Shown here piece by piece: positions 3,006 through 3,231 of a DNA stretch of 6,803 nt. A model generated the notes under the pieces. The model saw nothing but the letters and a program-made list of their open reading frames with translations, was not told the DNA's origin and did no database searches. The DNA comes from a virus (Duplodnaviria > Heunggongvirae > Uroviricota > Caudoviricetes), in IMG/VR virus record IMGVR_UViG_2778261347_000004; one strand, 5' to 3'. The position numbers and the translations under genes were made by a program. Every line of letters starts with the position of its first letter. Position 1 is the stretch's first letter.

Positions 3006-3153
3006 GTTTCACTCCTGCTTTGGCTAGTCTGTAAACACCAACAAGGCGCTCTGCGAACGCCCTGTTATTTGCTGCGGCTACCACTAATCCCTCAGGTGAA
3101 TCAGGGTGTCGAATCTCTTCTTTTTCCTGGTATTTCTTACGACGTTTTGTCAT
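2992..3153 (-). CDS. Hypothetical small basic protein, 53 aa ([53 protein letters not shown])
   Basis: Below ORF-track size cutoff. ATG 3153 with AGGAG 5 nt upstream (minus); fills the cII-O gap; TAA at 2992-2994 overlaps the start of the O-like gene. Caveat: its ATG is the reverse complement of the CAT in the oop-promoter -10 hexamer. Confidence 0.45.
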   Translation of the reverse strand: MTKRRKKYQEKEEIRHPDSPEGLVVAAANNRAFAERLVGVYRLAKAGVKHGRR

Positions 3154-3163
3154 AATTACTCCT

Positions 3164-3231
3164 GTGGATTGATACAGTCTTTCTACAATCAGGCCTCAAA
3201 ACTGTTGCCGCAGTCTTGAGGCTTTTCTTTT
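3164..3231 (+). ncRNA. oop: oop-like antisense RNA (about 65-70 nt) overlapping the 3' end of cII
   Basis: Extended -10 TGtCATAAT at 3148-3156 (plus), predicted start near 3164, intrinsic terminator at 3193-3231; sequence TTTGTCATAAT-ACTCCTGT-GATTGATA resembles the lambda pO/oop region as recalled. Confidence 0.6.

Follow-up and report, generated by a model that had tools for sequence, protein, structure and literature searches.

The DNA analysed here, called the window throughout, is a stretch of 6,803 nt from a Caudoviricetes genome (IMG/VR record IMGVR_UViG_2778261347_000004). The element described below sits in the immunity and early-right region of a Shiga-toxin lambdoid prophage, in which the pR operon runs on the minus strand. 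The genes that surround it, identified by Pfam search or, for the 53-aa ORF, taken from the list of open reading frames, are the following:

5391–5663, plus strand: N (Pfam)
3883–4620, plus strand: CI repressor (Pfam)
3577–3822, minus strand: Cro (Pfam)
3189–3467, minus strand: cII of the P22 c1 type, 92 aa (Pfam PF05269 Phage_CII, E = 4.9e-45)
2992–3153, minus strand: 53-aa ORF, HK97 gp53-like, between cII and O (ORF list)
2277–3005, minus strand: O-type replication initiator (Pfam)
845–2221, minus strand: DnaB-type helicase (Pfam)

The 53-aa ORF gave no match in the Pfam search of the window genes, and its counterparts in Sf6, ES18 and HK633 are annotated as homologues of HK97 gene 53. Small ORFs located between cII and the replication gene in various phages, including the 53-aa ORF and ORF48 of P22, have an N-terminal MTK...YQ(E/D)K motif in common, and the DNA encoding this motif is also the source of the CTGGTA found at the -35 position of pO. 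At the nucleotide level, bases 2950–3600 show 100% identity with the Stx1a-converting phage Stx1a_10051, and bases 3100–3260 show 100% identity with many E. coli O26:H11 chromosomes, where the annotation of the latter interval consists of the two flanking protein genes only.

Some other features of the window deserve mention. The O-type gene contains three 22-nt iteron-like direct repeats (2581–2649) with a spacing of 23–24 bp, which adjoin an A+T-rich stretch (2540–2580), and these repeats are probably the phage origin. Two "terminator-like" matches returned by a simple scan at 2603–2635 are these same iterons. Within the 5′ end of cII, a TTGC-N6-TTGC motif (TTGCTTGTAATTGC) at 3421–3434 on the plus strand would be the site where CII is expected to bind at pRE, oriented to cI. 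Just past a 98-aa ORF that follows cI, a G+C-rich hairpin at 4948–4990 (CCCGGCCTCAGCGCCGGG) has A runs upstream and T runs downstream, and is terminator-like on both strands. The immunity (pRM) operon probably ends at this hairpin, which also explains a weak Rfam match ("rnk_pseudo") as well as secondary matches of the covariance model R1 that is presented below.

An earlier note on this DNA had read the region between cII and the 53-aa ORF as encoding an antisense RNA that resembles oop and is driven by a promoter like pO, a reading that is supported by the present analysis. The features concerned are, in order along the window:

3127–3132, plus strand: weak -35-like hexamer CTGGTA, 3/6 matches to TTGACA, 18 bp upstream of the -10 hexamer (sequence)
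3148–3156, plus strand: extended -10 of pO, TGtCATAAT (TGTCATAAT), identical to lambda pO (tttgtcataat)
3159–3163, minus strand: Shine-Dalgarno sequence (AGGAG) of the 53-aa ORF, just outside the predicted oop 5′ end (sequence)
3162–3177, no strand: LexA-box-like palindrome CTGT-N8-ACAG (CTGTGGATTGATACAG) over the predicted +1 (sequence)
3164–3231, plus strand: predicted oop RNA, 65–68 nt (lambda alignment, P22 RNA-seq cluster, covariance model R1)
3164–3186, plus strand: predicted 5′ stem-loop, GUGGA (3164–3168) paired with UCUAC (3182–3186), 5 bp (fold)
3193–3222, plus strand: predicted tO terminator hairpin, 7 bp, A/C mismatch, 5 bp, loop UGCC (folds)
3223–3231, plus strand: U tract UUUUCUUUU, with cII codons K-E-K on the other strand (sequence)

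The extended -10 consists of TG at 3148–3149, a single spacer base and the hexamer CATAAT at 3151–3156, placed as the earlier note had it. The hexamer was also said to be shared with the point where the 53-aa ORF starts, and indeed CAT at 3151–3153 is the reverse complement of the ATG of this ORF. The proposed parallel with lambda OOP in position and promoter holds as well, 25/28 positions being identical between 3146–3173 (TTTGTCATAATTACTCCTGTGGATTGAT) and lambda (TTTGTCATAATGACTCCTGTTGATAGAT); the reverse complement of lambda 38560–38740 reads ...TTGAGTATTTTTGCTGTATTTGTCATAATGACTCCTGTTGATAGATCCAG... in this region. The 77-nt lambda oop RNA starts at the G of CCTGT, lambda position 38675, and its end lies in the T run past the GCTCGGTTGCCGCCGGGCG hairpin. 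When the lambda +1 is carried over by alignment, the predicted +1 in the window becomes G3164, and with a 3′ end in the U tract at 3228–3231 the RNA would be 65–68 nt long, which agrees with the 65–70 nt estimated before.

Taken by itself, the -10 motif is no rarer than chance: TGNYATAAT occurs once in the window where 0.51 occurrences would be expected, and 78 of 200 shuffled sequences contain it too. A generic scan, in which a promoter needs 9/12 matches and the stem rule probably bars internal mismatches, called neither a promoter nor a terminator at the pO-oop site. The poor -35 accounts for the former, and the A/C mismatch in the stem probably breaks the stem rule, so that the silence of the scan is not evidence of absence. 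Because the -10 is not rare and the scan is silent, the case rests on homology, conservation and fold statistics. CTGGTA also occurs, at an equal distance, where the small ORF upstream is a different one, and P22 has CTGGTC. Since the hexamer lies inside the 53-aa ORF (codons Y-Q-E), protein coding may account for its conservation. Similarly, the next gene takes its ribosome-binding site and start codon from the promoter block, which is also an annotated mosaic boundary in Sf6, and the conservation of the block could therefore have other causes.

The terminator hairpin on the plus strand has the sequence GGCCUCAAAACUG-UUGCC-GCAGUCUUGAGGC. The segment 3193–3231, identified earlier as a plus-strand intrinsic terminator, folds at -18.5 kcal/mol with a z-score of -4.19, and 0 of 200 shuffles were as good. 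What follows the hairpin on the minus strand is CUGAUUGUAGAAA, not a U tract, and hence only the plus strand resembles an intrinsic terminator. To call the terminator unidirectional is reasonable from the sequence, given that the U run is found on the plus strand only. Further upstream in the predicted RNA, the 5′ stem differs in the versions from Erwinia and Klebsiella phages by one pair that changes from G-C to A-U on both sides and by two pairs that are changed on one side. These few sequences suggest that the 5′ stem-loop of P22-type oop is real, and that the structured 5′ end of the RNA may matter for its stability or pairing kinetics. In the window, an extra A relative to P22 permits an alternative 5′ stem, GAUUG/CAAUC.

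The RNA would span the cII stop codon and about the last 13 codons of the gene, which is the overlap with the cII 3′ end that the earlier note described. In lambda, the C-terminal tail of cII is a degradation tag. The tail of the window protein ends in ...LTKEKPQDCGNSFEA, and across loci the tails vary (PQDCGNSFEA, APKNGEFFEA, RPAATERSEQIQMEF, SPAATEDFKQIDMQF and others); despite these differing tails, the T tract decodes as (K/N)(K/E)K in all compared loci. Synonymous recodings of the cII tail peptide of the window were used as a fold control, and 0.8–1.2% of them fold as well as the natural sequence, with 2–3% being terminator-like. That so few recodings fold equally well indicates that the structure is selected at the nucleotide level and is not a by-product of the protein. 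The locus is a clean case of a terminator and a protein tail using the same bases.

To see the element in other phages, IMG/VR was scanned for the promoter core TTGTCATAATNACTCCTGT, of which only the last two bases lie inside the RNA. At least 120 stretches with a pO core were obtained, and 119 promoter regions, including those of lambda and the window, were analysed. Among the matches listed, 116/119 regions have a hairpin of between -10.6 and -17.7 kcal/mol that runs straight into a T tract, which is located at +58 to +74 in these regions and at +60 in the window. The three exceptions are two unrelated contexts with weak hairpins and one lambda-type region in which the T tract is broken by an A. 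The hairpin occurs in at least eight sequence versions among the matches listed: the lambda type, the lambda type with a longer loop, two of a TCCTCGG/CCGGGGA type, the P22/window type, the ST64T/L type, and singletons at loci L025, L057 and L127. Two further P22-like versions are from Erwinia and Klebsiella phages, and at least four P22-like and at least four lambda-like versions retain a hairpin at this place. Three terminator pairs in the lambda-like set are compensatory (C-G to U-A, G-C to C-G, and G-C to A-U), and the four P22-like versions, with many stem differences between them, all have folding energies between -18.5 and -22.6 kcal/mol, at z-scores of -3.8 to -5.7. In a MAFFT alignment, the P22-like and lambda-like hairpins are out of register, which makes pair counts across the two types unreliable, and we have therefore relied on the separate folds and on the lambda-like subset.

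The earlier note had suggested a search with an oop covariance model. The model used here, R1, was made from 15 lambda-like oop sequences with every P22-type sequence excluded, and was roughly calibrated. With filters off, its top match in the window is 3164–3229 on the plus strand, at full length, with 16.8 bits and an E-value of about 0.013. The match has the right place, strand and extent, with a modest score and a marginal E-value for a model calibrated in this way. P22-like loci score in the same manner (P22 18.9, phage L 18.0, ES18 17.7, Sf6 17.2 and an Erwinia phage 20.8 bits). A search of Rfam 15 at permissive thresholds returned no above-threshold match in the window, and lambda oop itself has no match in Rfam 15 either, from which it appears that Rfam 15 is without an oop model. 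Perhaps for this reason, no ncRNA is annotated at this site in the RefSeq genomes listed; an oop annotation is absent from the phage and RefSeq records inspected for this allele, including the O26:H11 EHEC genomes. The hairpin variants, at least eight and with compensatory changes, would support an Rfam oop family. As a separate observation, the P22 sar RNA (RF00262) gave a weak match at 3149–3228 (18.4 bits, E = 7, threshold 43), the only Rfam match near the site, which we regard as a chance resemblance. Like the predicted RNA, sar is an antisense RNA of a phage, about 68 nt long and closed by an intrinsic terminator, but its locus (immI, ant) and its target are different.

An RNA at the equal position has been detected in P22. 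P22C-oop, found by small-RNA-seq of P22 infection in 2026, is 63 nt long, maps to the minus strand at 14,024–14,086, and amounts to 653–1513 RPM in infected samples and 0 in uninfected samples (PMC13397905). The coordinates refer to record AF217253 (14024–14086, exact), and window positions 3167–3230 are identical to this read cluster at 61/64 positions. As the -35 in P22 (CTGGTC) is no better than that of the window and the RNA is nevertheless seen, it can be argued that a promoter of this kind works in vivo. A P22 oop was proposed from sequence by Backhaus and Petri in 1984, according to the citation in PMC13397905. An RNA named OOP(BTP1) has been annotated from the transcriptome of the P22-like Salmonella prophage BTP1 (PMC7067206), and reviews mention oop-like sequences in the cII-O regions of Stx phages (PMC5488031; PMC12197685). 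In addition, the record of phage L has a terminator annotated on this strand at the equal place, and the record of HK633 has a "similar to lambda oop" annotation beside the 53-aa ORF.

Based on this evidence, 3127–3231 very probably comprises a pO promoter, an oop RNA gene and a tO terminator, in an allele that is paired with a P22 c1-type cII. Such an element has been known before, and what the prophage carries, without annotation, is the P22-type allele of the lambdoid oop gene. As a discovery it carries little weight, the P22 version having been proposed in 1984 and since been seen by RNA-seq. Its value is practical, and lies in oop being unannotated in the inspected records of this allele and in Rfam being without an oop family.

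Expression of the RNA and down-regulation of cII in this phage can be expected in analogy to lambda, P22 and BTP1. RNA polymerase would start at about G3164 from the extended -10 and transcribe against the pR operon, and transcription would end at the intrinsic terminator within the last 13 cII codons, producing an RNA of about 66 nt. The antisense arrangement implies perfect complementarity between oop and the pR mRNA, and oop would pair with the pR transcript from the spacer between cII and the 53-aa ORF into the last 13 cII codons. Cleavage of the duplex by RNase III would then lead to decay of the cII message and a fall in CII, and less CII would mean less activity of pRE, pI and paQ and a bias to lysis. 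Moreover, the firing of pO against pR may damp rightward read-through into the replication genes, and the LexA-like box may keep pO down until SOS induction. RNase III-dependent decay of cII mRNA, a LexA site and pO/pR interference have all been described for lambda (PMC5869508; PMC3985674; PMC2327240). In lambda, oop had little or no part in the removal of CII after SOS induction, and oop mutations gave no return of CII activity after UV (PMC2327240), which makes the size of its physiological effect uncertain. The overlap with cII, which is shorter in the window than in lambda, is a second reason for caution.

It is also conceivable, if quite improbable, that transcription from pO is itself the main function, with collision or occlusion of pR polymerases tuning the replication genes and the origin in O, and with the oop RNA as a by-product. 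In lambda, a mutation in the pO -10 alters plasmid copy number and pR read-through, and these effects are not mimicked by raised levels of oop RNA (PMC3985674). The origin-like iteron array in gene O (2581–2649), which is about 500 bp off, would fit such a role. However, lambda oop is documented to lower cII by an antisense mechanism, and the covariation of the 5′ stem in P22-like phages suggests selection on the RNA itself. The effects on copy number and read-through are those seen in lambda, and the replication module of the window is P22-like (an O-like initiator and a DnaB-type helicase). A function in transcription is furthermore compatible with a function of the RNA, and the two do not exclude each other.

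The stability of the hairpin on the other strand raises the question whether it serves the sense (pR) transcript only, for instance as a 3′ stabiliser or processing site. What looks like a promoter would then only be the place where translation of the 53-aa ORF begins, with its ribosome-binding site and start codon, and there would be no antisense RNA of consequence. The minus-strand hairpin is as stable as its counterpart (-19.9 kcal/mol, 12 continuous pairs) and ends at the cII stop codon, the conserved block holds the AGGAG and ATG of the downstream gene, and the -35 of pO is weak. We nonetheless consider this explanation very improbable. The U run is on the plus strand only, and among the matches listed the antisense T tract is kept in 116/119 loci even though it forces K/N-K/E-K on the protein. 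A discrete antisense RNA with these ends exists in P22 despite an equally weak -35, antisense RNA has also been reported in BTP1 and lambda, and the 5′ stem covaries.

It is extremely improbable that the conserved block of 35 bp owes its preservation mainly to a role as recombination joint for swaps of immunity and replication modules, with the promoter being incidental. In favour of a joint, the Sf6 "boundary sequence" bsq5 is annotated exactly here (locus L002 472–504, window 3146–3180), BLAST matches break at the block, and the window is a mosaic at this point: the 53-aa ORF to the left of the block has 98.7% identity with HK633 and Stx2 phage 1717, which both have a lambda-type oop/cII where the window has a P22-type oop/cII to the right. 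A joint would leave unexplained, however, both the terminator that lies 60–75 nt downstream in every cII type compared and the RNA seen in P22 and lambda, and it can hold alongside the main explanation without competing with it.

Returning to the reading as pO, oop and tO, the palindrome over the predicted +1 merits separate consideration. CTGT-N8-ACAG has its sole match in the window here, against 0.10 expected. The lambda counterpart at the same place is CTGTTGATAGATCCAG (the window has CTGTGGATTGATACAG), and among the matches listed nearly all other loci have CTGTGGATTGATCCAG. A3174, which converts the common CCAG to the consensus ACAG, is present in 0/118 other pO regions among the matches listed, and is identical in the O26:H11 genomes. 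A LexA binding sequence within oop-pO has been described in lambda (PMC5869508), and we infer that the reported site is this palindrome. A rough LexA heterology index, from a matrix of known LexA sites, scores the window at 10.2, lambda at 8.9 and the common allele at 11.7, and 13 of 100 shuffles do as well as the window; it is thus suggestive and not significant alone. A LexA box over the oop start is plausible, not proven. It is doubtful that the window allele goes as far as being an SOS-gated oop switch, which by tighter LexA binding would be kept off in the lysogen and set free when CI is cleaved. If it did, lysis commitment of a toxin phage would be tied to DNA damage more directly than in lambda. 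Separately, a DnaA-box-like core, ATCCACA, was noticed by eye on the minus strand just downstream of pO (TCAATCCACA, 3163–3172), and DnaA boxes downstream of pO are described in lambda (PMC3985674).

As for lambda, the oop gene of the window is homologous in the -10 region, the context of the start site and the first 14 nt or so of the RNA, 10 nt of which are inside the block with 25/28 identities. In both phages the -10 overlaps the start codon of the next gene, whose Shine-Dalgarno sequence abuts +1, the stop codon of cII falls at +23 to +26, the terminator is within the coding sequence of the cII C-terminal tail, and a LexA-like palindrome occupies the equivalent position. The window RNA is about 11 nt shorter, and overlaps cII by 43 nt compared with 55–56 nt in lambda. 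Its terminator has 12 pairs with an internal mismatch, whereas that of lambda has 8 pairs and differs in sequence and shape. The 5′ hairpins are also different, GUGGA/UCUAC in the window and AUCCAG/CUGGAU in lambda. At the promoter, CTGGTA and an 18-bp spacer in the window contrast with TTGAGT and a 17-bp spacer in lambda, and the next gene is the small ORF in the former and O in the latter.

[quoted passage not shown] In comparison with P22, the window has an A instead of C at 3174, which completes CTGT-N8-ACAG, an extra A at about 3187–3188, just past the cII stop codon, and a G instead of C at 3208 in the terminator loop. The upstream neighbour is the HK97 gp53-like 53-aa ORF in the window and ORF48 in P22, and the -35 region differs accordingly between the two loci. 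The hosts differ too, the window being a Stx1 prophage of E. coli, unlike P22, which infects Salmonella. With the P22-like prophage BTP1, which was compared by position alone, the window shares an antisense RNA at an equal position.
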